From the NCBI RefSeq assembly GCF_048403405.1, contig NZ_CP183129.1: 64,000 bases of DNA. One strand, 5' to 3'. The translations under genes were made by a program, and so were the position numbers. Below are positions 7,237-21,261 of the stretch, piece by piece. The DNA is from Escherichia coli. Lineage in GTDB: Bacteria > Pseudomonadota > Gammaproteobacteria > Enterobacterales > Enterobacteriaceae. Numbering within the stretch: the stretch's first letter is position 1; every line of letters starts with the position of its first letter. The notes under the pieces were generated by a model. The model saw only the letters and a program-made list of their open reading frames with translations. It was not told the origin of the DNA and did no database searches.

Positions 7237-7851
7237 TTATCTGTTTGAGCCTAAAGGGATCTCAGGGTCTGGCTCATGAGTAATTCTGTTTCGTAAATCT
7301 CTGCGAATAATTTCAATGGACCAGAACCAGACTAAATGTCCAAAAATTTCAGAAACATTCTCATACCACGGGAGATCAAACAGAGGTGGCGTCAGTCCCA
7401 TGAGAGGGAATGAAATCATATGAACAAAAAGTTGGGCTAAAGCACCTGCCAGTAAGCCCTGCCAGAGTTTAATTTTTGGAAATACTTCAGCGACCACACA
7501 ATAACCGACAGCAAACACTATCGAAAAGATAATGTGCGTAACACCAACCCAGTTAAAGACATGCCCGGCAAAGGTATAAACAGCCGCATTGGGATCTGTC
7601 AGCCCCAACCAGTCTCGAAGAAAAATATACGGAGGATTGAGAAAATTACGGGAGCAATCAATTTGCCCAGCAGCCCTGATTAATGATTCCGGGCCACACG
7701 CTGCATTAAACATATCCACCGGGCTACGTGGCGGCAATGGAACTTCAGCCCCCCACTTCACAAATGCGGAAACAACGCCAGCAATCAGCCCAATGAATGC
7801 AGCAAGACCATAACGTCTGCGGTTCGGTGGAGTTTGTTCAAATATATTCAT
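7237..7851 (-). CDS. yagU: Inner membrane protein YagU (DUF1440)
   Basis: 204-aa [33 protein letters not shown], multi-TM. Confidence 0.9.
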
Positions 7852-8257
7852 ATCTACCCTGCTTGTACCATTATGTTATACACCTCTTCAGGAGTATTCA
7901 TAAAATAAGACAAATGTAAAGAACTGTATTGTTTTGTATAACAAGATAGTTTCCTAATCGCCAATGAATATAAGCACCATCATTTCTCCCTATTTTTATG
8001 TTAGAAGTGACAAAGATTTGTAGGGTGATGCAGAGCTGACAATCACAGGTTTCCTTATCGGTTTTTGCATCGTACAACTAAAGCAATAAACGAGCTCCCG
8101 TCATCGGCGAATATGAATTAATTAGCCGGGCTCATAGCTGCATTCGCGTTTTAAGAATAATCCTCCTGCTCTCACCGACTATGCTTAACGTTTAAAAAAG
8201 CATCAGCACTCTCGCAACGCTCTCTTATTTTCCCCTTTAGAATACCGGAGGCCTGGT

Positions 8258-8947
8258 ATGAGCAACCAAGGCGAATACCCCGAAGATAATCGGGTTGGGA
8301 AGCACGAGCCGCACGATTTTAGTTTGACCCGTCGCGATCTGATTAAAGTCAGCGCCGCAACGGCGGCGACCGCCGTGGTTTATCCTCATTCTACGCTTGC
8401 AGCAAGCGTTCCGGCAGCTACACCCGCGCCAGAGATAATGCCCCTGACACTTAAGGTGAACGGCAAAACCGAGCAGTTGGACGTTGATACCCGAACCACG
8501 CTACTGGACGCTTTGCGTGAAAATCTGCATCTGATCGGTACCAAGAAAGGTTGCGATCACGGGCAGTGCGGAGCCTGTACCGTGCTGGTCAATGGTCGCA
8601 GGCTTAATGCCTGCCTGACGCTTGCAGTCATGCATCAGGGGGCCGAGATCACCACCATTGAAGGCCTGGGTTCACCAGAGAATCTTCACCCCATGCAGGC
8701 GGCCTTTATCAAGCATGATGGCTTCCAGTGCGGCTACTGCACCTCCGGGCAAATTTGCTCATCAGTAGCGGTGCTAAAAGAGATTCAGGACGGCATTCCC
8801 AGTCACGTCACGGTCGATTTGGTTTCCCCTCCAGAAAGAACGGCCGATGAGATCCGTGAACGTATGAGCGGCAACATCTGTCGCTGTGGAGCATACGCTA
8901 ACATCCTTGCCGCCATTGAAGACGCTGCGGGGGAGATAAAATCATGA
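8258..8947 (+). CDS. paoA: Periplasmic aldehyde oxidoreductase, 2Fe-2S subunit PaoA (Tat signal)
   Basis: Twin-arginine motif LTRRDLIKV; two Cys clusters ([11 protein letters not shown] and CRCGAY) typical of 2Fe-2S ferredoxin subunits. Confidence 0.95.
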
Positions 8948-9900
8948 AGGCGTTTACCTATGAACGAGTGAACACCCCGGCCGAGGCGGCACTTAGCGCT
9001 CAGCGCGTACCCGGCGCAAAATTTATCGCTGGCGGGACCAATCTGCTGGACCTGATGAAGCTGGAAATTGAAACGCCAACCCACCTTATCGATGTGAACG
9101 GGCTCGGGCTCGATAAGATTGAAGTGACCGACGCGGGTGGGCTGCGCATCGGCGCACTGGTACGGAACACCGACCTGGCAGCTCACGAGCGCGTGCGTCG
9201 TGATTACGCGGTACTCTCCCGCGCCCTGCTCGCTGGCGCGTCTGGTCAGTTACGTAATCAGGCAACCACCGCAGGTAATCTGCTCCAGCGCACGCGCTGC
9301 CCCTATTTTTACGACACCAATCAGCCCTGCAATAAGCGCCTGCCCGGGAGCGGCTGCGCGGCACTTGAAGGCTTTAGCCGTCAGCACGCGGTGGTAGGCG
9401 TAAGCGAAGCCTGCATTGCCACCCATCCGAGCGATATGGCGGTCGCAATGCGGTTGCTGGATGCGGTGGTGGAAACCATCACGCCGGAGGGAAAGACTCG
9501 CAGTATCACACTGGCTGATTTTTATCACCCTCCAGGAAAAACGCCGCACATTGAAACCGCCCTGCTTCCCGGTGAGCTTATCGTTGCGGTGACGTTACCT
9601 CCGCCGCTCGGCGGAAAACATATTTACCGTAAGGTGCGCGATCGCGCCTCCTACGCCTTTGCCCTGGTATCGGTCGCAGCGATTATTCAGCCTAACGGCA
9701 GCGGGCGCGTCGCGCTGGGCGGAGTAGCACATAAGCCCTGGCGCATTGAGGCTGCGGATGCTCAGCTATCCCAGGGGGCGCAGGCCGTGTATGACGCGCT
9801 GTTCGCCAGCGCCCATCCCACCACTGAAAACACCTTTAAACTCCTGTTGGCGAAGCGAACGCTTGCCTCCGTACTGGCTGAAGCGAGGGCACAGGCATGA
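8944..9900 (+). CDS. paoB: Aldehyde oxidoreductase FAD-binding subunit PaoB
   Basis: 318-aa ORF overlapping paoA stop; CO-dehydrogenase flavoprotein-like. Confidence 0.93.
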
Positions 9901-12095
9901 AATTTGATAAACCCGCAGGGGAAAACCCGATTGATCAGCTGAAGGTTGTCGGTCGTCCCCATGACCGTATCGACGGACCGCTGAAAACTACCGGCACGGC
10001 ACGCTACGCCTACGAATGGCATGAAGAAGCCCCCAACGCCGCCTATGGTTATATCGTCGGTTCCGCCATTGCCAAAGGATGCCTCACCGCCCTCGATACG
10101 GACGCCGCGCAAAAAGCGCCGGGCGTACTGGCTGTCATTACCGCCAGTAACGCCGGGGCACTCGGCAAAGGCGACAAAAACACCGCCAGGCTGTTAGGCG
10201 GCCCCACTATTGAGCACTATCATCAGGCCATTGCGCTGGTAGTGGCCGAGACCTTCGAACAGGCACGAGCGGCGGCCTCGCTGGTGCAGGCGCACTATCG
10301 CCGTAATAAAGGAGCTTACTCCCTGGCGGACGAGAAACAGGCCGTCAGTCAGCCGCCGGAAGACACGCCCGATAAAAATGTTGGTGACTTTGACGGGGCT
10401 TTCACCTCCGCTGCGGTGAAGATTGATGCTACCTACACGACCCCGGACCAGAGCCATATGGCGATGGAACCGCATGCCTCGATGGCCGTCTGGGATGGAA
10501 ATAAGCTTACCCTCTGGACCTCAAATCAGATGATTGACTGGTGCCGCACCGATCTGGCAAAAACGCTGAAAGTGCCCGTGGAGAATGTGCGTATTATCTC
10601 CCCGTATATCGGTGGAGGGTTTGGCGGCAAGCTGTTCCTGAGAAGCGATGCGCTGCTGGCGGCCCTCGCCGCCCGTGCGGTGAAACGTCCGGTTAAAGTG
10701 ATGCTCCCCCGCCCCACTATTCCCAATAACACCACGCACCGCCCCGCCACCCTTCAGCACCTGCGTATCGGTGCCGACCAGAGCGGGAAAATCACTGCTA
10801 TCTCACATGAAAGCTGGTCCGGAAACCTGCCCGGCGGCACGCCGGAAACGGCGGTACAGCAAAGCGAATTTCTTTACGCAGGGGCGAATCGTCATACAGG
10901 CCTGCGGCTCGCCACGCTTGATTTGCCGGAAGGGAACGCCATGCGTGCGCCCGGCGAAGCCCCCGGTCTGATGGCGCTCGAAATCGCGATCGACGAACTG
11001 GCGGAAAAAGCGGGCATCGATCCCGTCGAGTTTCGCATCCTGAATGACACTCAGGTTGACCCCGCCGACCCGACGCGCCGCTTCTCTCGCCGTCAGCTTA
11101 TTGAGTGCTTGCGCACCGGAGCGGATAAATTTGGCTGGAAGCAGCGAAACGCCACCCCCGGACAGGTACGCGACGGGGAGTGGCTAGTCGGCCACGGTGT
11201 TGCGGCGGGCTTTCGCAATAATCTGCTGGAAAAATCGGGTGCGCGGGTTCACCTGGAGCAAAACGGCACCGTTACCGTGGAAACGGACATGACCGATATT
11301 GGCACTGGCAGCTACACCATTCTGGCCCAGACGGCAGCGGAAATGCTTGGCGTACCGCTGGAGCAGGTTGCGGTTCACCTCGGCGATTCCAGTTTCCCGG
11401 TTTCTGCGGGTTCTGGTGGACAATGGGGCGCGAATACCTCCACCTCCGGCGTTTACGCCGCCTGTGTGAAACTTCGCGAAATGATTGCCTCGGCAGTCGG
11501 GTTTGATCCTGAGCAGTCGCAGTTTGCCGACGGCAAGATTACCAACGATACCCGAAGCGCCACGCTACATGAGGCCACCGCAGGCGGCAGACTGACAGCG
11601 GAAGAGAGCATTGAATTCGGAACAATGAGCAAGGAGTACCAGCAATCGACCTTTGCCGGGCATTTTGTGGAGGTCGGCGTGCATAGCGCGACGGGAGAAG
11701 TTCGGGTCCGGCGTATGCTCGCCGTGTGCGCAGCGGGGCGCATTCTGAATCCGAAAACTGCACGCAGCCAGGTCATTGGCGCAATGACTATGGGCATGGG
11801 CGCGGCACTGATGGAGGAGCTGGCGGTAGATGACCGTTTGGGCTACTTCGTTAATCACGATATGGCGGGGTATGAGGTGCCGGTCCATGCGGATATCCCA
11901 AAACAGGAGGTGATTTTCCTGGATGATACCGACCCCATCTCCTCCCCGATGAAGGCCAAAGGTGTCGGTGAGCTGGGCCTGTGCGGCGTGAGCGCGGCTA
12001 TCGCCAACGCGGTGTATAACGCCACCGGTATTCGGGTACGGGATTATCCCATCACTCTGGATAAGCTGCTCGATAAACTGCCGGATGTGGTTTAA
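9897..12095 (+). CDS. paoC: Aldehyde oxidoreductase molybdopterin-binding subunit PaoC
   Basis: 732-aa ORF; xanthine dehydrogenase large-subunit-like. Confidence 0.95.
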
Positions 12096-12104
12096 GGAGG
12101 AACA

Positions 12105-13061
12105 ATGTCATACTCGCTTTTTGACAAAGACGAGCACTGGCATAAGCCAGAGCAGGCGTTTCTCACCGATGACCACCGGACCATTCTGCGCTTCGCCGTA
12201 GAGGCGCTAATGTCCGGTAAAGGAGCGGTGCTGGTGACGCTGGTGGAGATACGCGGCGGCGCGGCGCGCCCGCTCGGGGCGCAGATGGTGGTGCGCGAAG
12301 ATGGTCGTTACTGCGGTTTTGTCTCTGGCGGCTGCGTGGAGGCCGCTGCCGCTTTTGAAGCGCTGGAGATGATGGGCTCAGGCCGCGATCGCGAAATTCG
12401 CTATGGTGAAGGTTCGCCGTGGTTTGACATCGTTCTGCCCTGCGGCGGTGGGATCACGCTGACGCTCCATAAACTACGCTCGGCACAGCCTCTGCTCGCC
12501 GTGCTGAACCGCCTGGAACAGAGAAAACCGGCGGGTCTGCGCTACGATCCGCAAGCTCAATCGCTGGTGTGCCTGCCCACGCAAACCCGGACGGGCTGGA
12601 ATCTCAATGGCTTTGAGGTGGGGTTCAGACCATGCGTCAGTCTGATGATTTACGGACGTTCTCTTGAGGCGCAGGCAACCGCGAGTCTTGCAGCAGCCAC
12701 AGGCTATGACAGCCATATCTTCGATCTTTTTCCGGCCTCAGCCAGCGCTCAGATCGATACCGATACGGCGGTCATTTTGCTGTGCCATGATCTCAACCGG
12801 GAGCTGCCAGTGTTGCAGGCCGCGCGAGAGGCAAAACCCTTTTATCTCGGCGCATTGGGCAGCTATCGAACCCACACTTTACGTCTGCAAAAGCTCCACG
12901 AGCTGGGATGGTCCAGGGAGGAGACAGCGCAAATCCGGGCACCCGTCGGGATATTCCCCAAAGCCCGGGATGCGCATACTCTGGCACTCTCCGTGCTGGC
13001 AGAAGTCGCCTCTGTACGTCTCCATCAGGAGGAGGATTCATGCCTGCCCCCGTCGTCCTGA
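12105..13061 (+). CDS. paoD: XdhC-like molybdenum cofactor insertion chaperone PaoD
   Basis: 318-aa ORF immediately after paoC. Confidence 0.9.
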   Translation: MSYSLFDKDEHWHKPEQAFLTDDHRTILRFAVEALMSGKGAVLVTLVEIRGGAARPLGAQMVVREDGRYCGFVSGGCVEAAAAFEALEMMGSGRDREIRYGEGSPWFDIVLPCGGGITLTLHKLRSAQPLLAVLNRLEQRKPAGLRYDPQAQSLVCLPTQTRTGWNLNGFEVGFRPCVSLMIYGRSLEAQATASLAAATGYDSHIFDLFPASASAQIDTDTAVILLCHDLNRELPVLQAAREAKPFYLGALGSYRTHTLRLQKLHELGWSREETAQIRAPVGIFPKARDAHTLALSVLAEVASVRLHQEEDSCLPPSS

Positions 13062-13125
13062 TCCTTGCGGCCGGGCGTGGAGAGCGCTTTCTCGCCTCCG
13101 GGGGAAATACCCATAAATTAAGAGA
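13040..13125 (+). pseudogene. Possible 5' remnant of a MobA/MocA-like nucleotidyltransferase gene
   Basis: ATG overlapping paoD stop encodes MPAPVVLILAAGRGERFLASGGNTHKL, resembling the N-terminal NTP-transferase motif; similarity is lost after about 28 codons. Confidence 0.3.
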
Positions 13126-13240
13126 AAAATCTGCAGTAGCCGTTTTAGAAAATCACCTAAATCGTTTAAAAGAGCACCCAACCCATAGTGGGCGCTCATC
13201 GCCTTGTGTAACTTATTCAGCAACGCGCGCCCTCGCCGGA

Positions 13241-14434
13241 CTAAAGCGCACCGGCCTTCTGGCGTGCGGTAACAAAGGTCAGTACGCCAGCGCAAAGGAG
13301 CAGCACGCTACTCATAGCAAACGTGCTCTGCCAGCCAAGGCGGTCAAATACGATGCCTCCTGCTGTTGATCCAAGGGCGATGGAGAGCTGAATCACCGCG
13401 ACCATGAGCCCGCCTCCGGCTTCGGCGTTGTCAGGCAACGTACGCGCAATCCATGTCCACCATCCGGTTGGCGCGGCGGTGGCCAGCATGCCCCAGAGTC
13501 CTAACAGCAGCGAGACCGTCCAGACGTGATGCCCGGTCAGCATCAGACCGATAGCAATGACGGCCATCAGTCCGGGTATGGCCATCAGCGTGGGGTAGAA
13601 TTTTCTGTTGAGAAATGCCGAAACAACCAGCGTGCCAATAAAACCGGCCACGCCGATAATCAGCAAAATCAACGACAAGCCTAAGGAATTAACCCGTGTC
13701 ACCGACTCCAGAAACGGGCGCACATAGGTGAATAGTGCAAACTGCCCCATGAAAAACAGGCAGCAGGCTATCATGCCGACCACAACCATGCGGCGGCTAA
13801 ATAAGCGGAATACCGCGCCACATGAAGTGTGGCTTTTATTCGCATCCATGCTTGGCAGGCTGATGCACTGCCAGATAAAGGCGACAACCGCGATGGGCAC
13901 CAGGCACAAGAAAGCGCCTCGCCATCCGACCGTAGCCCCCAGATAGCTTCCCAGCGGTGCGGCCACGACCGTCGCCAGCGCATTACCGGCGTTGAAAATT
14001 GCCAGCGCACGCGTGACCTGATGCTGCGGCACCAGACGAATCGCCGTTGCCGCTGACATCGACCAGAATCCGCCAATAGCCACACCAATCATCGCACGAC
14101 CGACCATATACATCAGATAACTGGAAGCCAGCGCAATAATAAGCCCCGATACGGCCATCAGAACCGTCATCCCCAGCAGCAGGAACTTACGATTCATCTT
14201 TCCAGCTAGCGTTGAAAGCGTCAGGCTGGTCAGAACCGCCAGCGCGCCGGAGATAGCAATCCCCTGCCCTGCCAGCCCCTCCGTCACGCCTAAATCGCGG
14301 GTAATCGGCGTGAGCAGGCTGACGGGCATAAATTCAGAAGCAATCAGCACAAACACGCACAGGGTCATGGCAAAAATACCGCCCCAGTATGCGCGCTGAT
14401 GATGAGGTGATAGTGTTTGGCTTAGTGTCGACAT
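13241..14434 (-). CDS. Major facilitator superfamily transporter (12-TM)
   Basis: 397-aa hydrophobic ORF with MFS-like loop motifs. Confidence 0.85.
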   Translation of the reverse strand: MSTLSQTLSPHHQRAYWGGIFAMTLCVFVLIASEFMPVSLLTPITRDLGVTEGLAGQGIAISGALAVLTSLTLSTLAGKMNRKFLLLGMTVLMAVSGLIIALASSYLMYMVGRAMIGVAIGGFWSMSAATAIRLVPQHQVTRALAIFNAGNALATVVAAPLGSYLGATVGWRGAFLCLVPIAVVAFIWQCISLPSMDANKSHTSCGAVFRLFSRRMVVVGMIACCLFFMGQFALFTYVRPFLESVTRVNSLGLSLILLIIGVAGFIGTLVVSAFLNRKFYPTLMAIPGLMAVIAIGLMLTGHHVWTVSLLLGLWGMLATAAPTGWWTWIARTLPDNAEAGGGLMVAVIQLSIALGSTAGGIVFDRLGWQSTFAMSSVLLLCAGVLTFVTARQKAGAL

Positions 14435-14509
14435 AGTGAAATTTCACAAAGATCAGGATAAAAGCCACCAGCCTATGGCCGGTGGCTTTGCATCAATTCA
14501 GGAGAGGTT

Positions 14510-15646
14510 TTATTTCAGTTTGGTCTGGAAAAATTGTTCGAACTTCGCGAAAGGTATTTTTCCGGCCACGTTATCGTACAGGTCCACGTGATTTGCCCCT
14601 GGTACCACCACCAACTCTTTGTCTTTACTGCCAACCGCCTTGTAAGCATCTTCAGCAAAATAGCGTGAATGTGCTTTCTCACCGGTCACAATCAGCGTCG
14701 GAATGGTGATTTCACTGGCGTAGCTCAACAGCGGCATATTCATAAATGACAGCGGCATCGTTGCCGTCCACGCCCCGGTAGAGTTAACGGAACGTTCGTG
14801 GAAGCCGCGCGGCATGCGATAGTAGTCAAAGAACTCTTTCAGTACCGGATGAGGATTTGCCGGCAGCGTTTCTGGCAGAATGCGCTCGCCCGCACTGACC
14901 TTGCCGTTGCTGTCGACATTAATATCATGACCACCGTGAGCGAACGTTCCGCTCTGCGCATCCTTCCAGCGCTGTTCATTCAGATATTGCAGAACGGCAC
15001 GACGGTCGGCGGTAGAATAACGGTCTTTGCCATCCCCCACACCATGACCCATCGCCCGGCTCATGTCATACATCACGCTGGTAGCTACCGCTTTAACGCG
15101 GGTATCCATCGCCACGTCGTTCAGCGCCATGCCGCCCCAGCCACAAATACCGAGCAGCCCGATACGGTTGCGATCTACCTCTTTTTGCAGCCCTAAGAAA
15201 TCCACCGCCGCGCTGAAATCTTCAGTGTTGATATCCGGTGAGGCGACGTTTCGCGGATAGCCGCCGCTTTCCCCGGTGTAAGAAGGATCGAACGCCAGGG
15301 TAACAAACCCTCGTTCCGCCAGCGTCTGCGCATACAAGCCGCTGGATTGCTCTTTCACCGCGCCAAATGGCCCACTGACCGCAATCGCCGCCAGCTTGCG
15401 ATCGCCACGGTCTTTAGGCAGGTAAAGATCGCCCACTAAGGTGATGCCATATCGGTTCGGGAACGAGACTTTACGGTGATCGACTTTCTGGCTCTCGGCG
15501 AACGTTTTATCCCATTTATCTGTCATGGACACAGGGGCATTAGGATTGGTTGAATCAGCATAACTCATTGTCGTGACTCCACTTAATGATGCGAAAAGCA
15601 GCATGGTCGGCATCGCGGTTTTTAGCGTGCGGGTGAAGGCTTTCAT
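14510..15646 (-). CDS. Secreted alpha/beta-hydrolase-fold protein (putative Cys/Ser hydrolase)
   Basis: N-terminal signal peptide; nucleophile-elbow-like GICGWGG motif; ends VVVPGANHVDLYD. Confidence 0.7.
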   Translation of the reverse strand: MKAFTRTLKTAMPTMLLFASLSGVTTMSYADSTNPNAPVSMTDKWDKTFAESQKVDHRKVSFPNRYGITLVGDLYLPKDRGDRKLAAIAVSGPFGAVKEQSSGLYAQTLAERGFVTLAFDPSYTGESGGYPRNVASPDINTEDFSAAVDFLGLQKEVDRNRIGLLGICGWGGMALNDVAMDTRVKAVATSVMYDMSRAMGHGVGDGKDRYSTADRRAVLQYLNEQRWKDAQSGTFAHGGHDINVDSNGKVSAGERILPETLPANPHPVLKEFFDYYRMPRGFHERSVNSTGAWTATMPLSFMNMPLLSYASEITIPTLIVTGEKAHSRYFAEDAYKAVGSKDKELVVVPGANHVDLYDNVAGKIPFAKFEQFFQTKLK

Positions 15647-15832
15647 AAAAATCCCCATAAAAAACAACAGAGAGATACAGGTTTCCGACGGACAACGCTG
15701 CGGTGCTTTACTTTGATGGGGTCATTATAGTGAGCAGAATTAGTGCTGATTAGGGGGCGATTAATGCTAAGATTAATACCATATTGTTATAAATTAATGT
15801 GGAGATTGCCGGCATGAAGGGGGGATGTTTCA

Positions 15833-16717
15833 ATGGCGAAAAGGGAGAACTACAACGAGCTGTACCTGTTTATGCAGGTGGTGCGAGAAGGCAGCTTTAC
15901 CGCAGCGGCTCAGCGGCTGGGTCTTGCTCAGTCAGGAGTCAGCCGTTCTGTTCGCGAGCTTGAAGAAAGGCTGGGTGTCCAGCTGCTAGTGCGCACCACG
16001 CGTAAACTGTCGCTGACACAAGCAGGCGAGCAGCTCTACCAGAAGACGGCATCTGGATTTGAAATGTTAGATCTTGGGCTTGCCACACTGGCGCACTATC
16101 GAGAGACGCCCTCCGGCACGGTGCGTATCAATGCCAGCCAGCACGCGATTGATAAATGCCTGCTGCCAAAGCTGGCGGTATTTAAACAGCGATATCCTGA
16201 TATCCGGCTTGAACTGATAAATGAGAGCCGGTTCGTCGATATCATCGAGGAAAGATTCGATGCAGGTGTCCGCCTGGGGCCTGAAGTCGGCCAGGGTATG
16301 GTCGCGGTACGCATCACGCCCGATATGGAGATGGCAATTGTGGGGACTCCGGAACATTTTCGTCGCTATGGTTTTCCGCAAACCCCGGCGGATTTAAAGG
16401 CGCATCCCTGTATCGCCTATCAGTTTGCCGACGGCAGCGTATACCAGTGGGAACTCAATCAGGATGATAAAAAAATCACTCATCGCCCTGAAGGGCAATG
16501 GGCCTTATCCGACAGCTATATGGAAGCAGAAGCCGCCCGGCTGGGCCTCGGATTGGCCTATGTTCCTGTTGAACTGGTCGCGGATGATTTAGAACACGGT
16601 AAGCTTATCAGGGTGTTGCAGCGTTACAGCCTGCGAATGGAGGGATTGTTTCTCTATTACCCTCATCGCAACGTCTCCCCCGCCCTGCGGATGGTCATTG
16701 ATACATTGAAAATCTGA
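15833..16717 (+). CDS. LysR-family transcriptional regulator
   Basis: 294 aa; N-terminal HTH FTAAAQRLGLAQSGVSRSVRELEERLGVQLLVRTTRKLSLTQAG; divergent from the hydrolase-MFS pair. Confidence 0.88.
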   Translation: MAKRENYNELYLFMQVVREGSFTAAAQRLGLAQSGVSRSVRELEERLGVQLLVRTTRKLSLTQAGEQLYQKTASGFEMLDLGLATLAHYRETPSGTVRINASQHAIDKCLLPKLAVFKQRYPDIRLELINESRFVDIIEERFDAGVRLGPEVGQGMVAVRITPDMEMAIVGTPEHFRRYGFPQTPADLKAHPCIAYQFADGSVYQWELNQDDKKITHRPEGQWALSDSYMEAEAARLGLGLAYVPVELVADDLEHGKLIRVLQRYSLRMEGLFLYYPHRNVSPALRMVIDTLKI

Positions 16718-16789: not shown

Positions 16790-17210
16790 TGTACTGACCC
16801 CAAAAAGTTGGACAGTTAAACACGAGGCATATAGGTCTGATTCCGATATTCAATTGGAGTCAGACCTTTTAATTTCAGGCTAATTCTTCTGCTGTTGTAG
16901 TATTCAATATATTCCGTAACAGCATCCTTCAGTTCGCTTATATTACTGAACTCATCAAGATAAAAACACTCCGACTTTAAGGTTCCAAAGAAACACTCCA
17001 CCACAGCATTATCCAGACAATTGCCTTTTCTGGACATGCTTTGTTTAATACCATGTTCTTTAAGGATATTTTGATATCTTCTCATACGATACTGCCATCC
17101 CTGGTCAGAGTGCAGAACAGGATGCTCGTGAGGATTAAGCTTTTTGAATGCCTGATCGAGCATATTCTCAACCATGTTCATCACTGGTCTTTCCGAAAGG
17201 CTGTAAGAAA
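16790..17210 (-). mobile_element. IS3-family (IS150-group-like) element, right part: orfB C-terminal fragment plus terminal repeat
   Basis: Minus-strand translation ...[47 protein letters not shown]...; end sequence tgtactgaccccaaaaagttggac; abuts IS26 at 17211. Confidence 0.8.
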
Positions 17211-18030
17211 GGCACTGTTGCAAATAGTCGGTGGTGATAAACTTATCATCCCCTTTTGCTGATGGAGCTGCACATGAACCCATTCAAAGGCCGGCATTTT
17301 CAGCGTGACATCATTCTGTGGGCCGTACGCTGGTACTGCAAATACGGCATCAGTTACCGTGAGCTGCAGGAGATGCTGGCTGAACGCGGAGTGAATGTCG
17401 ATCACTCCACGATTTACCGCTGGGTTCAGCGTTATGCGCCTGAAATGGAAAAACGGCTGCGCTGGTACTGGCGTAACCCTTCCGATCTTTGCCCGTGGCA
17501 CATGGATGAAACCTACGTGAAGGTCAATGGCCGCTGGGCGTATCTGTACCGGGCCGTCGACAGCCGGGGCCGCACTGTCGATTTTTATCTCTCCTCCCGT
17601 CGTAACAGCAAAGCTGCATACCGGTTTCTGGGTAAAATCCTCAACAACGTGAAGAAGTGGCAGATCCCACGATTCATCAACACGGATAAAGCGCCCGCCT
17701 ATGGTCGCGCGCTTGCTCTGCTCAAACGCGAAGGCCGGTGCCCGTCTGACGTTGAACACCGACAGATTAAGTACCGGAACAACGTGATTGAATGCGATCA
17801 TGGCAAACTGAAACGGATAATCAACGCCACGCTGGGATTTAAATCCATGAAGACGGCTTACGCCACCATCAAAGGTATTGAGGTGATGCGTGCACTACGC
17901 AAAGGCCAGGCCTCAGCATTTTATTATGGTGATCCCCTGGGCGAAATGCGCCTGGTAAGCAGAGTTTTTGAAATGTAAGGCCTTTGAATAAGACAAAAGG
18001 CTGCCTCATCGCTAACTTTGCAACAGTGCC
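17211..18030 (+). mobile_element. IS26 copy 1 (820 bp, complete)
   Basis: Terminal inverted repeats ggcactgttgcaaa at 17211 and its reverse complement ending at 18030; internal Tnp26 ORF. Confidence 0.95.
17271..17978 (+). CDS. tnpA: IS26 transposase Tnp26 (IS6 family)
   Basis: [57 protein letters not shown]... Confidence 0.95.
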   Translation, partial: HMNPFKGRHFQRDIILWAVRWYCKYGISYRELQEMLAERGVNVDHSTIYRWVQRYAPEMEKRLRWYWRNPSDLCPWHMDETYVKVNGRWAYLYRAVDSRGRTVDFYLSSRRNSKAAYRFLGKILNNVKKWQIPRFINTDKAPAYGRALALLKREGRCPSDVEHRQIKYRNNVIECDHGKLKRIINATLGFKSMKTAYATIKGIEVMRALRKGQASAFYYGDPLGEMRLVSRVFEM

Positions 18031-18743
18031 CTTGCTGGTAGTGGTTCTGTAGCCAGGTGGCTGAAGGTCTATGAAGAGCGCGGAGAAGCTGGTTTACGCG
18101 CGCTCAAGATTGGCACCAAAAGAAACATTGCAATATCAGTTGATCCAGAAAAAGCGGCATCAGCATTGGAGCTGTCAAAAGACCGACGCATTGAGGATCT
18201 TGAAAGGCAAGTTCGATTTCTTGAAACGCGGCTTATGTATCTAAAAAAGCTGAAAGCCTTAGCTCATCCCACGAAAAAGTAAAAGTACTCAACGAGCTAA
18301 GGCAGTTTTATCCTCTTGATGAGCTTCTCAGGGCTGCGGAGATACCGCGCAGTACGTTTTATTACCATCTAAAGGCTCTCAGCAAGCCTGACAAGTATGC
18401 GGACGTTAAAAAGCGTATTGGTGAGATTTATCACGAGAATAGAGGCCGATACGGATACCGTAGGGTAACGCTGTCTCTTCATCGAGAAGGGAAACAGATT
18501 AACCATAAAGCTGTTCAGCGCCTGATGGGAACCCTCTCACTTAAAGCAGCGATTAAGGTCAAGCGATACCGCTCTTACAGAGGAGAGGTAGGGCAAACCG
18601 CCCCTAATGTTCTCCAAAGAGATTTCAAGGCTACGCGGCCAAACGAGAAGTGGGTTACCGATGTTACTGAATTTGCAGTCAATGGGCGCAAGCTGTATTT
18701 GTCTCCAGTAATAGATCTCTTCAACAACGAAGTTATTTCTTAC
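18031..18743 (+). mobile_element. IS3-family element, internal part: orfA 3' region, A6G slippery site, orfB N-terminal fragment
   Basis: A-AAA-AAG frameshift heptamer at 18243-18249; orfB N-terminus ...[36 protein letters not shown], which continues in frame with the minus-strand fragment at 16816-17210. Confidence 0.8.
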
Positions 18744-19563
18744 GGCACTGTTGCAAAGTTAGCGATGAGGCAGCCTTTTGTCTTATTCAAAGGCCTTACA
18801 TTTCAAAAACTCTGCTTACCAGGCGCATTTCGCCCAGGGGATCACCATAATAAAATGCTGAGGCCTGGCCTTTGCGTAGTGCACGCATCACCTCAATACC
18901 TTTGATGGTGGCGTAAGCCGTCTTCATGGATTTAAATCCCAGCGTGGCGTTGATTATCCGTTTCAGTTTGCCATGATCGCATTCAATCACGTTGTTCCGG
19001 TACTTAATCTGTCGGTGTTCAACGTCAGACGGGCACCGGCCTTCGCGTTTGAGCAGAGCAAGCGCGCGACCATAGGCGGGCGCTTTATCCGTGTTGATGA
19101 ATCGTGGGATCTGCCACTTCTTCACGTTGTTGAGGATTTTACCCAGAAACCGGTATGCAGCTTTGCTGTTACGACGGGAGGAGAGATAAAAATCGACAGT
19201 GCGGCCCCGGCTGTCGACGGCCCGGTACAGATACGCCCAGCGGCCATTGACCTTCACGTAGGTTTCATCCATGTGCCACGGGCAAAGATCGGAAGGGTTA
19301 CGCCAGTACCAGCGCAGCCGTTTTTCCATTTCAGGCGCATAACGCTGAACCCAGCGGTAAATCGTGGAGTGATCGACATTCACTCCGCGTTCAGCCAGCA
19401 TCTCCTGCAGCTCACGGTAACTGATGCCGTATTTGCAGTACCAGCGTACGGCCCACAGAATGATGTCACGCTGAAAATGCCGGCCTTTGAATGGGTTCAT
19501 GTGCAGCTCCATCAGCAAAAGGGGATGATAAGTTTATCACCACCGACTATTTGCAACAGTGCC
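18744..19563 (-). mobile_element. IS26 copy 2 (820 bp, complete, inverted relative to copy 1)
   Basis: Identical Tnp26 ORF on minus strand; inverted repeats at 18744 and 19563. Confidence 0.95.
18796..19503 (-). CDS. tnpA: IS26 transposase Tnp26
   Basis: Protein identical to the copy at 17271-17978. Confidence 0.95.
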
Positions 19564-19803
19564 GATGATTTCAGATTTCATGACTTGAGACACACCTGGG
19601 CAAGTTGGCTGGTTCAAGCCGGTGTCCCGTTGTCAGTGTTACAGGAAATGGGAGGCTGGGAGTCTATCGAAATGGTTCGTCGATATGCTCACCTCGCACC
19701 TAATCACCTTACCGAACACGCACGGCAAATAGACTCGATCCTGAACCCATCGGTCCCAAATTTGTCCCAGTCAAAAAATAAGGAAGGTACTAATGATGTG
19801 TAA
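19564..19803 (+). pseudogene. P4-like tyrosine integrase, C-terminal about 80 codons (5' part replaced by IS26)
   Basis: ...[47 protein letters not shown]... carries the catalytic H-x-x-R and Y region; stop lies 14 bp from the tRNA-Thr 3' end. Confidence 0.8.
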
Positions 19804-19817
19804 CTTATTGATTTAAA

Positions 19818-19893
19818 TGGTGCCGATAATAGGAGTCGAACCTACGACCTTCGCATTACGAATGCGCTGCTCTACCAACTGAGCTATATCGGC
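19818..19893 (-). tRNA. thrW: tRNA-Thr (anticodon CGU)
   Basis: Reverse complement reads GCCGATATAGCTCAGTTGGTAGAGCAGCGCATTCGTAATGCGAAGGTCGTAGGTTCGACTCCTATTATCGGCACCA. Confidence 0.95.
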
Positions 19894-20007
19894 CCTGAAA
19901 GGACATGTTCACGAACGTGAATCACGGTGGACAAGGTTAAAACTAACCGGGCGATGCGTCAATGGCCTTGTGAATCAAATGGCTACTTTTGCATCACCCG
20001 GTTTTAT

Positions 20008-21261
20008 TTACGCACGAATGGTGTAATCACCAATGCCGATCCACTTGTAAGTGGTCAGTGCTTCCAGCCCCATTGGGCCACGCGCGTGGAGTTTTTGTGT
20101 GCTTACCGCCACTTCCGCACCCAGACCAAACTGGCCGCCGTCGGTAAAACGCGTAGAGGCGTTAACGTAAACAGCGGACGAATCCACTTCGTTAACAAAA
20201 CGCTGGGCGTTGCGCATATCGCGGGTCAGGATCGCATCGGAGTGTTGTGTGCCGTGTTCACGAATATGGGCGATGGCATCGTCAAGATCGCTGACGATTT
20301 TGACGTTCAAATCTAATGACAGAAACTCATCGTCATACTCTTCGGCTTTAACAGCAACCACCTTCGCAGGGCCTGCCTGCAACTGCGCCAGTGCAGCTGC
20401 ATCTGCGTGTAATGTCACGCCGCTTTCCGCCATTTGTTTGCTTAATGCGGGCAGGAAGCTATCGGCGATGTTTTTATTCACCAGCAACGTTTCAACCGTA
20501 TTACATGTGCTCGGTCGCTGAGTTTTCGCGTTGACGATCACTTTTAATGCTTCAGCGATCTCTACACTTTCATCAACGTAAATATGGCATACGCCTATAC
20601 CACCTGTGATCACCGGGATCGTTGACTGTTCGCGGCACAGTTTATGCAGGCCAGCGCCACCACGCGGGATCAGCATGTCGATGTATTTATCCATACGCAG
20701 CATTTCACTGACCAGCGCACGGTCAGGATTATCAATCGCCTGCACGGCACCCGCCGGTAAGCCGCAGGATTTCAGGGCGTCCTGAATCACCGCCACCGTT
20801 GCAGCGTTAGTGCGGCAGGTTTCTTTACCGCCACGCAGGACCACCGCGTTACCCGTTTTCAGGCACAGCGAAGCGACATCAACCGTCACGTTCGGCCGCG
20901 CTTCATAAATCACGCCAATCACGCCCAGCGGTACGCGACGACGCTCAAGACGCAGGCCGCTGTCCAGTACGCCGCCATCGATTACCTGCCCCACCGGATC
21001 GGCAAGGTTACACACCTGGCGCACATCGTCAGCAATGCCTTTCAGCCGTGCGGGCGTCAGTGCCAGACGGTCAAGCATCGCTTCGCTAAGGCCATTGGCA
21101 CGCGCGTCAGCAACATCCTGGGCGTTAGCGTTGAGGATGATTTCGCTTTGTGCTTCCAGTTCATCGGCGATTTTTTCCAGCACACGATTTTTTTCGCGGC
21201 TGGAGAGTTGCGCTAATTTATACGAGGCTTGCTTTGCGGCAATGCCCATTTGTTCCAGCAT
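20008..21261 (-). CDS. proA: Gamma-glutamyl phosphate reductase
   Basis: 417-aa [41 protein letters not shown]... Confidence 0.97.

Follow-up and report, generated by a model that had tools for sequence, protein, structure and literature searches.

Positions 13040-13120 of a 64,000-nucleotide stretch of Escherichia coli DNA (henceforth the window) are very probably what is left of a MocA-like nucleotidyltransferase gene that used to be linked with the pao operon: its 5' end, comprising 27 of some 184 codons and no longer functional. This stub, which starts inside paoD and runs past its stop codon, had so far gone unannotated; it is an ordinary pseudogene fragment, derived from a gene of a known kind. 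The PaoABC enzyme carries the MCD cofactor, which MocA forms and passes to PaoD, and paoD has been described as the last gene of the E. coli pao operon (PMC3909100). Our comparisons suggest that it is only the loss of a fifth, MocA-like gene that makes this description true of E. coli. The consequences concern mainly annotation and evolution, and the known maturation of PaoABC in E. coli is unchanged; as by-products, K-12 yagP emerges as a chimera, and other enterobacteria are seen to have a candidate for a fifth pao gene. The relevant features of the window are as follows:

7237-7851, minus strand: yagU
8074-13120, plus strand: pao block, with 89-92% DNA identity to Pluralibacter, E. oligotrophicus and a metagenomic contig; it ends on the right with the stub
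8258-8947, plus strand: paoA
8944-9900, plus strand: paoB
9897-12095, plus strand: paoC
12105-13061, plus strand: paoD, XdhC-type Moco insertion chaperone (ORF; called paoD by PGAP in a genome 99% identical); the final 22 nt are shared with the stub
13027-13036, plus strand: Shine-Dalgarno-like run AGGAGGAGGA of the GGAGG type, 5' of the stub ATG (sequence)
13040-13120, plus strand: pseudogene stub, corresponding to codons 1-27 of the pao-linked MocA-like (NTP_transf_3) gene (tblastn, DNA collinearity)
13112-13116, plus strand: CATAA (His25-Lys26 codons), left copy of the deletion microhomology (comparison of O157, E. coli C and K-12)
13121-13240, no strand assigned: 120-bp spacer, probable 3' flank of the MFS gene; no homologue in relatives
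13241-14368, minus strand: MFS transporter gene, convergent with the pao operon (ORF; PGAP; 84.7% DNA identity to Salmonella contig L091)
14510-15568, minus strand: alpha/beta hydrolase gene of the same module (ORF; PGAP; Salmonella contig L091)
15833-16717, plus strand: LysR regulator gene of the MFS-hydrolase module, divergent from the hydrolase-MFS pair (ORF; PGAP)

Identity of the reading frame at the paoD stop

The stub ATG (13040-13042) precedes the paoD stop (13059-13061), giving a 22-nt overlap that can be read directly from the sequence. Translation from 13040 yields MPAPVVLILAAGRGERFLASGGNTHKL, continues as REKSAVAV... and stays open to 13369 (109 codons); PGAP calls nothing at this position. 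The ribosome-binding run AGGAGGAGGA is also kept in the Pluralibacter locus, where the gene is intact (alignment). In the window, the ATG, this run and the first 22 nt of the stub persist because they lie inside paoD, and the remainder is drifting.

The first-pass annotation had proposed that the ATG overlapping the end of paoD encodes a MobA/MocA-like N-terminus, and homology searches bear this out. Specifically, tblastn with five intact orthologues matched exactly positions 13040-13120 (22/27 to 24/26 identities; E 5e-9 to 8e-11) and gave no other significant match in the 64-kb window. Over the 27 codons, identity between the stub and intact proteins at their N-termini is 81-93%; the nearest of these proteins (P0056, P0057 and P0060, of which P0056 comes from E. 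oligotrophicus) agree with it at 25 of the 27 positions. Its orthology is supported both by the same start relative to paoD (a 22-nt overlap in the window and in locus L003) and by DNA that is collinear from paoD into the gene. The stub also holds a nucleotide-binding loop of the form (L/T)A(A/G)G...R: its LAAGRGERF aligns with TAAGLSSRM of MocA and LAGGKARRM of MobA (motifs taken directly from the E. coli genes).

Support for this identity is comparative rather than motif-based because the peptide alone is not significant against Pfam or NCBIfam. Neither the 27-aa stub nor the 109-aa ORF matched NTP_transf_3 in Pfam, even at E <= 10, and the best NCBIfam hit of the 27-aa peptide (IspD N-terminal, E 0.2) was not significant; these profile searches are null because the peptide is too short. 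The stub spans about 15% of the NTP_transf_3 domain and is thus a fragment of a member of that family rather than a member. Null profile searches would also be expected of a chance resemblance, in which the Gly/Ala-rich, out-of-frame translation of GC-rich DNA mimics a nucleotide-binding loop. We give that explanation next to no credence: the stretch of identity coincides with codons 1-27 of genes that occupy the orthologous position, homologous DNA runs collinearly through the paoD stop into the stub, and E values go down to 8e-11. Judged by these comparisons, the resemblance of the stub to nucleotidyltransferases is true homology.

The intact gene in other enterobacteria

A PaoD scan covering one genome per species returned 80 loci, 28 of them enterobacterial. 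A gene of about 184 codons abuts or overlaps the paoD stop in 26 of these 28 loci (the two exceptions are Erwinia records). The first-pass annotation had regarded an ancestral pao-linked cofactor gene, since truncated, as plausible, and had pointed to the pao loci of relatives as the place to look for a MobA-like gene. The presence of an intact, MocA-like gene at that very position in these loci upholds the proposal.

Three intact orthologues matched Pfam family PF12804 (NTP_transf_3) with 91.3, 92.3 and 93.8 bits (E ~1e-26; gathering score 27 bits) over profile positions 1-156 of 160, and the same family is precomputed on all of the best 120 protein homologues listed. Their top NCBIfam family is MocA_YgfJ (TIGR03310; E ~1e-23) at 78.9-84.7 bits, below the equivalog cut-off of 186.45 bits, and they score 15.7-21 bits (E ~1e-4) against the MobA equivalog models TIGR02665 and NF001457, with cut-offs of 151.85 and 164 bits, respectively. 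These scores point to proteins that are MocA-like but not MocA equivalogs.

MocA (YgfJ), the CTP:molybdopterin cytidylyltransferase of E. coli, shares NTP_transf_3 with the intact orthologues and represents their top NCBIfam match; its N-terminal loop is of the same type as that of the stub, xAAGxxxR(M/F), and it has the same functional partner in that it hands MCD to PaoD (PMC3909100). By contrast, the intact pao-linked proteins have a shorter central region and only 21% identity to MocA over 115 residues, the mocA gene lies in the unlinked yqeBC-ygfK cluster, and the window keeps 27 codons only. MobA, the GTP:molybdopterin guanylyltransferase, belongs to the same fold family and has its loop at the same N-terminal position as the stub, but carries LAGG instead of xAAG and matches the intact orthologues much more weakly (BLASTP E 0.002, over the N-terminal 40 residues only; 16-21 bits in NCBIfam). 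'MocA-like' would thus seem a better description of the stub than 'MobA-like'.

Gene pairs encoding an XdhC-type chaperone and a MocA homologue are known from B. subtilis (pucA-pucB), plasmid pAO1 (xdhC-mocA) and O. carboxidovorans (PMC2997495). In such pairs the chaperone gene is co-transcribed with that of the MocA homologue beside an MCD-type enzyme that belongs to the xanthine oxidase family (PMC2997495), a pattern which enterobacterial paoD and its downstream gene fit. The known pairs are intact and come from other phyla, whereas in E. coli the second member has been destroyed; PucB itself matches the pao-linked proteins with 45-57 bits only.

Linkage to paoD and PaoABC, together with the top family match, suggests that the intact family has cytidylyltransferase (i.e., MCD-forming) activity; its substrate is read from context because of the 21% identity to E. 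coli MocA and the score below the MocA equivalog cut-off. The family may be a dedicated cytidylyltransferase working with PaoD. A fuller version of this hypothesis, which we consider evenly balanced, is that the pao-linked NTP_transf_3 proteins of about 184 aa constitute a distinct, PaoD-dedicated MCD synthase ('PaoE'), that the native enterobacterial operon is paoABCDE, and that E. coli, the model species for studies of PaoABC maturation, is degenerate in this respect, with the unlinked MocA having taken over cofactor delivery to PaoD.

The breakpoint and the two junctions in E. coli

DNA homology to Pluralibacter, which has the intact gene, amounts to 91.4-91.7% and extends from window position 8074 to 13120, where it ends after CAT AAA TTA, at codon 27. 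Homology ends at the same position for the metagenomic contig (88.7%) and for the pao part of the Salmonella contig (92.8%), and at 13117 for E. oligotrophicus (89.5%). The breakpoint is 13120|13121, after codon 27. The first-pass annotation had placed the loss of similarity after about 28 codons, at 13125, and had island-type sequence begin there. Alignment to homologues, which it had suggested for locating the breakpoint, confirmed that homology is lost here and shifted the exact position to 13120|13121. The island-type sequence was not supported: what follows the break is a 120-bp spacer and a convergent module, and in the Salmonella contig that module is collinear with the intact gene.

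The remaining 157 codons were not recovered elsewhere. In the K-12, E. coli C, O157 and CFSAN loci, tblastn with the five intact orthologues found the stub only, and a blastn search of 5,426 complete E. coli genomes with the 3' 471 bp of the Pluralibacter gene came back empty. There was no Escherichia-named protein among the best 120 homologues listed, and no genome of E. coli or other Escherichia with an intact gene was found. We also considered an inversion or translocation of the 3' part, which was ruled out as only the stub was matched by tblastn in the window and the four E. coli loci. With 27 of about 184 codons left, the rest absent elsewhere and disabling mutations present in some lineages, the stub has the hallmarks of a pseudogene and is most likely non-functional.

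No homologue of the spacer (searched as 13121-13252) was found in four relatives by blastn-short. On its minus strand (about 13168-13197), a GC-rich hairpin of 9 bp precedes UUUU, plausibly the terminator of the MFS gene, although the signal is local only (overall fold z -0.8) and a simple terminator and promoter scan of 12800-13500 found none.

The pao region is present in 3,598 of the 5,426 complete E. coli genomes, and queries spanning the junction revealed only two junction types among these 3,598 (912 of the window type and 2,685 of the K-12 type). The window type, i.e., stub, 120-bp spacer and convergent MFS-hydrolase-LysR module, includes E. coli C and O157:H7. In K-12, homology to the window ends at 13116 and is followed by a LysR C-terminal fragment. 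Comparison with O157 and E. coli C showed this junction to be a 6,134-bp deletion between two CATAA pentamers, one in the stub (His25-Lys26) and the other at the His-Lys codons of a second LysR gene, which lies further right (K-12 L002 4241-4651; O157 L085 14317-20450; window 13112-13116). The MFS, hydrolase, first LysR and SDR genes were taken out by the deletion. The window type is the older state because the K-12 type derives from it by this CATAA deletion. A deletion into the window's own LysR gene turned out to be the wrong candidate for the K-12 junction: the gene at 15833-16717 is not the source of the LysR part of yagP, which comes from the second LysR gene, present in O157 and E. coli C and absent from the window.

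The product of the junction, YagP (136 aa), consists of 26 MocA-like residues fused in frame to 110 LysR C-terminal residues. This microhomology deletion explains the N-terminus of a protein which databases name only as a LysR fragment or a hypothetical protein, and whose gene PGAP treats as an incomplete pseudogene. K-12 yagP and the window stub have the same ATG and the same first 26 codons; they differ in that stub, spacer and MFS-hydrolase-LysR still stand in the window as they did before the deletion, whereas in K-12 the last 110 LysR codons are fused on. Two further changes are consistent with decay: the stub of O157:H7 (FRIK2069) has a 1-bp deletion (CCC to CC; L085 about 14312, window 13110-13112) that shifts the frame before codon 25, and the K-12 stub carries an R16C change.

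These observations also bear on whether the ORF from 13040 (109 aa in the window; the 136-aa YagP in K-12) could be a real translated gene with a function of its own, coupled to paoD via its ribosome-binding site and overlapping start. We regard this as very unlikely. The strong GGAGG run and the ATG overlapping the paoD stop have indeed been kept, but these signals are accounted for by the paoD overlap. Protein calls for each of the two ORFs come from many deposited genomes (clusters of 133 and 502 sequences), yet PGAP annotates nothing at the stub and only an incomplete pseudogene in K-12. The YagP fusion is in frame; against this, the O157 stub is frameshifted, and the window ORF past codon 27 has no homologue and runs antisense through the MFS gene. 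Finally, a 27-residue piece of a Rossmann-like domain would be unable to bind a nucleotide. A weaker addition to the 'PaoE' hypothesis is that junk or chimeric peptides (the 109-aa ORF and YagP) may still be made by coupled translation from the retained ribosome-binding site and ATG.

Origin of the pao block and of the truncation

The Salmonella enterica contig L091 (17.8 kb) carries a 5'-truncated paoD, the intact MocA-like gene, a 7.2-kb stretch with other genes (hydrolase, two-component system, cupin, CMD, flavodoxin-like, hydrolase) and then MFS-hydrolase-LysR, with gene order and orientation matching the window. The MFS-hydrolase-LysR module (window 13253-16533) is 84.7% identical to L091, compared with 92.8% for the pao part, and given this difference the two parts may have separate histories; the module is not obviously a separate island.

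We propose that the ancestral enterobacterial pao locus had the MocA-like gene after paoD, overlapping its stop, so that paoABCD was in effect followed by a fifth gene. The line of descent to E. coli would have lost the 3' 157 codons of this gene, most likely by a deletion of several kilobases (about 7 kb from a Salmonella-like layout), which would have joined codon 27 to the 3' flank of the downstream convergent MFS-hydrolase-LysR module. We infer a clean deletion from such a layout, with a right endpoint that is not placeable because the spacer is without homologue. The loss was probably tolerated since the unlinked MocA (ygfJ) makes MCD and hands it to PaoD. In most E. coli, the second deletion (6.1 kb, between the CATAA pentamers) joined the stub in frame to the C-terminus of the other LysR gene, giving rise to the YagP ORF.

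Alternatively, the pao block may have arrived by horizontal transfer as a fragment of roughly 5 kb whose right recombination endpoint fell inside the MocA-like gene, such that the gene was never complete in E. coli. Several properties of the block fit such an arrival: homology to Pluralibacter is confined to 8074-13120 with unrelated flanks, GC content is 59% vs 43% towards yagU, a gene is cut at the left edge as well (leaving an MFS remnant at 8012-8080), and an intact copy is absent from the 5,426 E. coli genomes. Furthermore, the block is 89.5% identical to E. oligotrophicus, vs 79% for thrW-proA on the same contig (pao block compared with L086, L089 and L093; window 19812-21222 compared with L089). 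The E. oligotrophicus pao locus also adjoins thrW-proA, however, which suggests an older shared location, and the collinearity of the downstream module with the intact gene in the Salmonella contig fits an internal deletion in one larger block. On balance, we think truncation on arrival possible but unlikely, and favour a later deletion. The two scenarios predict identical present-day sequence and are indistinguishable because no Escherichia genome with an intact gene was found.

At the two ends of the pao block (8074 and 13120), a search for bracketing terminal repeats of the transposon kind, direct or inverted, turned up nothing but short chance repeats. The comparisons suggest that the block has spread horizontally among enterobacterial genera and that the pao/thrW region may be a patchwork of imported blocks, trimmed by short-repeat deletions.

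Other observations concern the surroundings of the pao genes. With the MFS remnant on the left and the stub on the right, the pao block is bracketed by truncated genes on both sides. The remnant (window 8012-8080) comprises 23 codons, 87% identical to an MFS gene (398 aa) which E. oligotrophicus has in intact form immediately upstream of paoA (L089 3840-5036); in the E. coli copy, ~46 codons are gone from the start and an internal stretch of ~980 bp was deleted at an ACAACT microhomology. In the Salmonella enterica contigs L091 and L092, paoABC is missing and the truncated paoD adjoins an integrase-like gene, umuD, a UvrD-type helicase and a TraI_2 relaxase, and the context of the intact MocA-like gene and the module looks like that of an ICE-type element. 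In Xanthomonadales (Frateuria defendens L028 4958-8581; Pseudoxanthomonas L036 and L053 736-3848), genes for LysR, an alpha/beta hydrolase and an MFS transporter lie directly beside a PaoD homologue; there the MFS protein is 63% identical to the window's, the orientation is inverted and the MocA-like gene is missing. Linkage of such a module to pao-type genes is recurrent.

A recognisable island boundary (thrW, integrase fragment and IS26 copies) lies at 16.8-19.9 kb, 6.7 kb right of the break. This thrW-proximal side (16816-19893) is a scrambled island edge with IS3-family transposase fragments (16816-17283 and 18525-18905) and two IS26 transposase genes in opposite orientation (17256-17978, plus strand; 18796-19518, minus strand). 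A C-terminal fragment of a tyrosine integrase ends at 19803, 15 bp from tRNA-Thr (thrW; 19818-19893, minus strand), and proA-proB lies to the right of thrW. At the thrW-proximal site, K-12 has ptwF, intF and the CP4-6 prophage instead.
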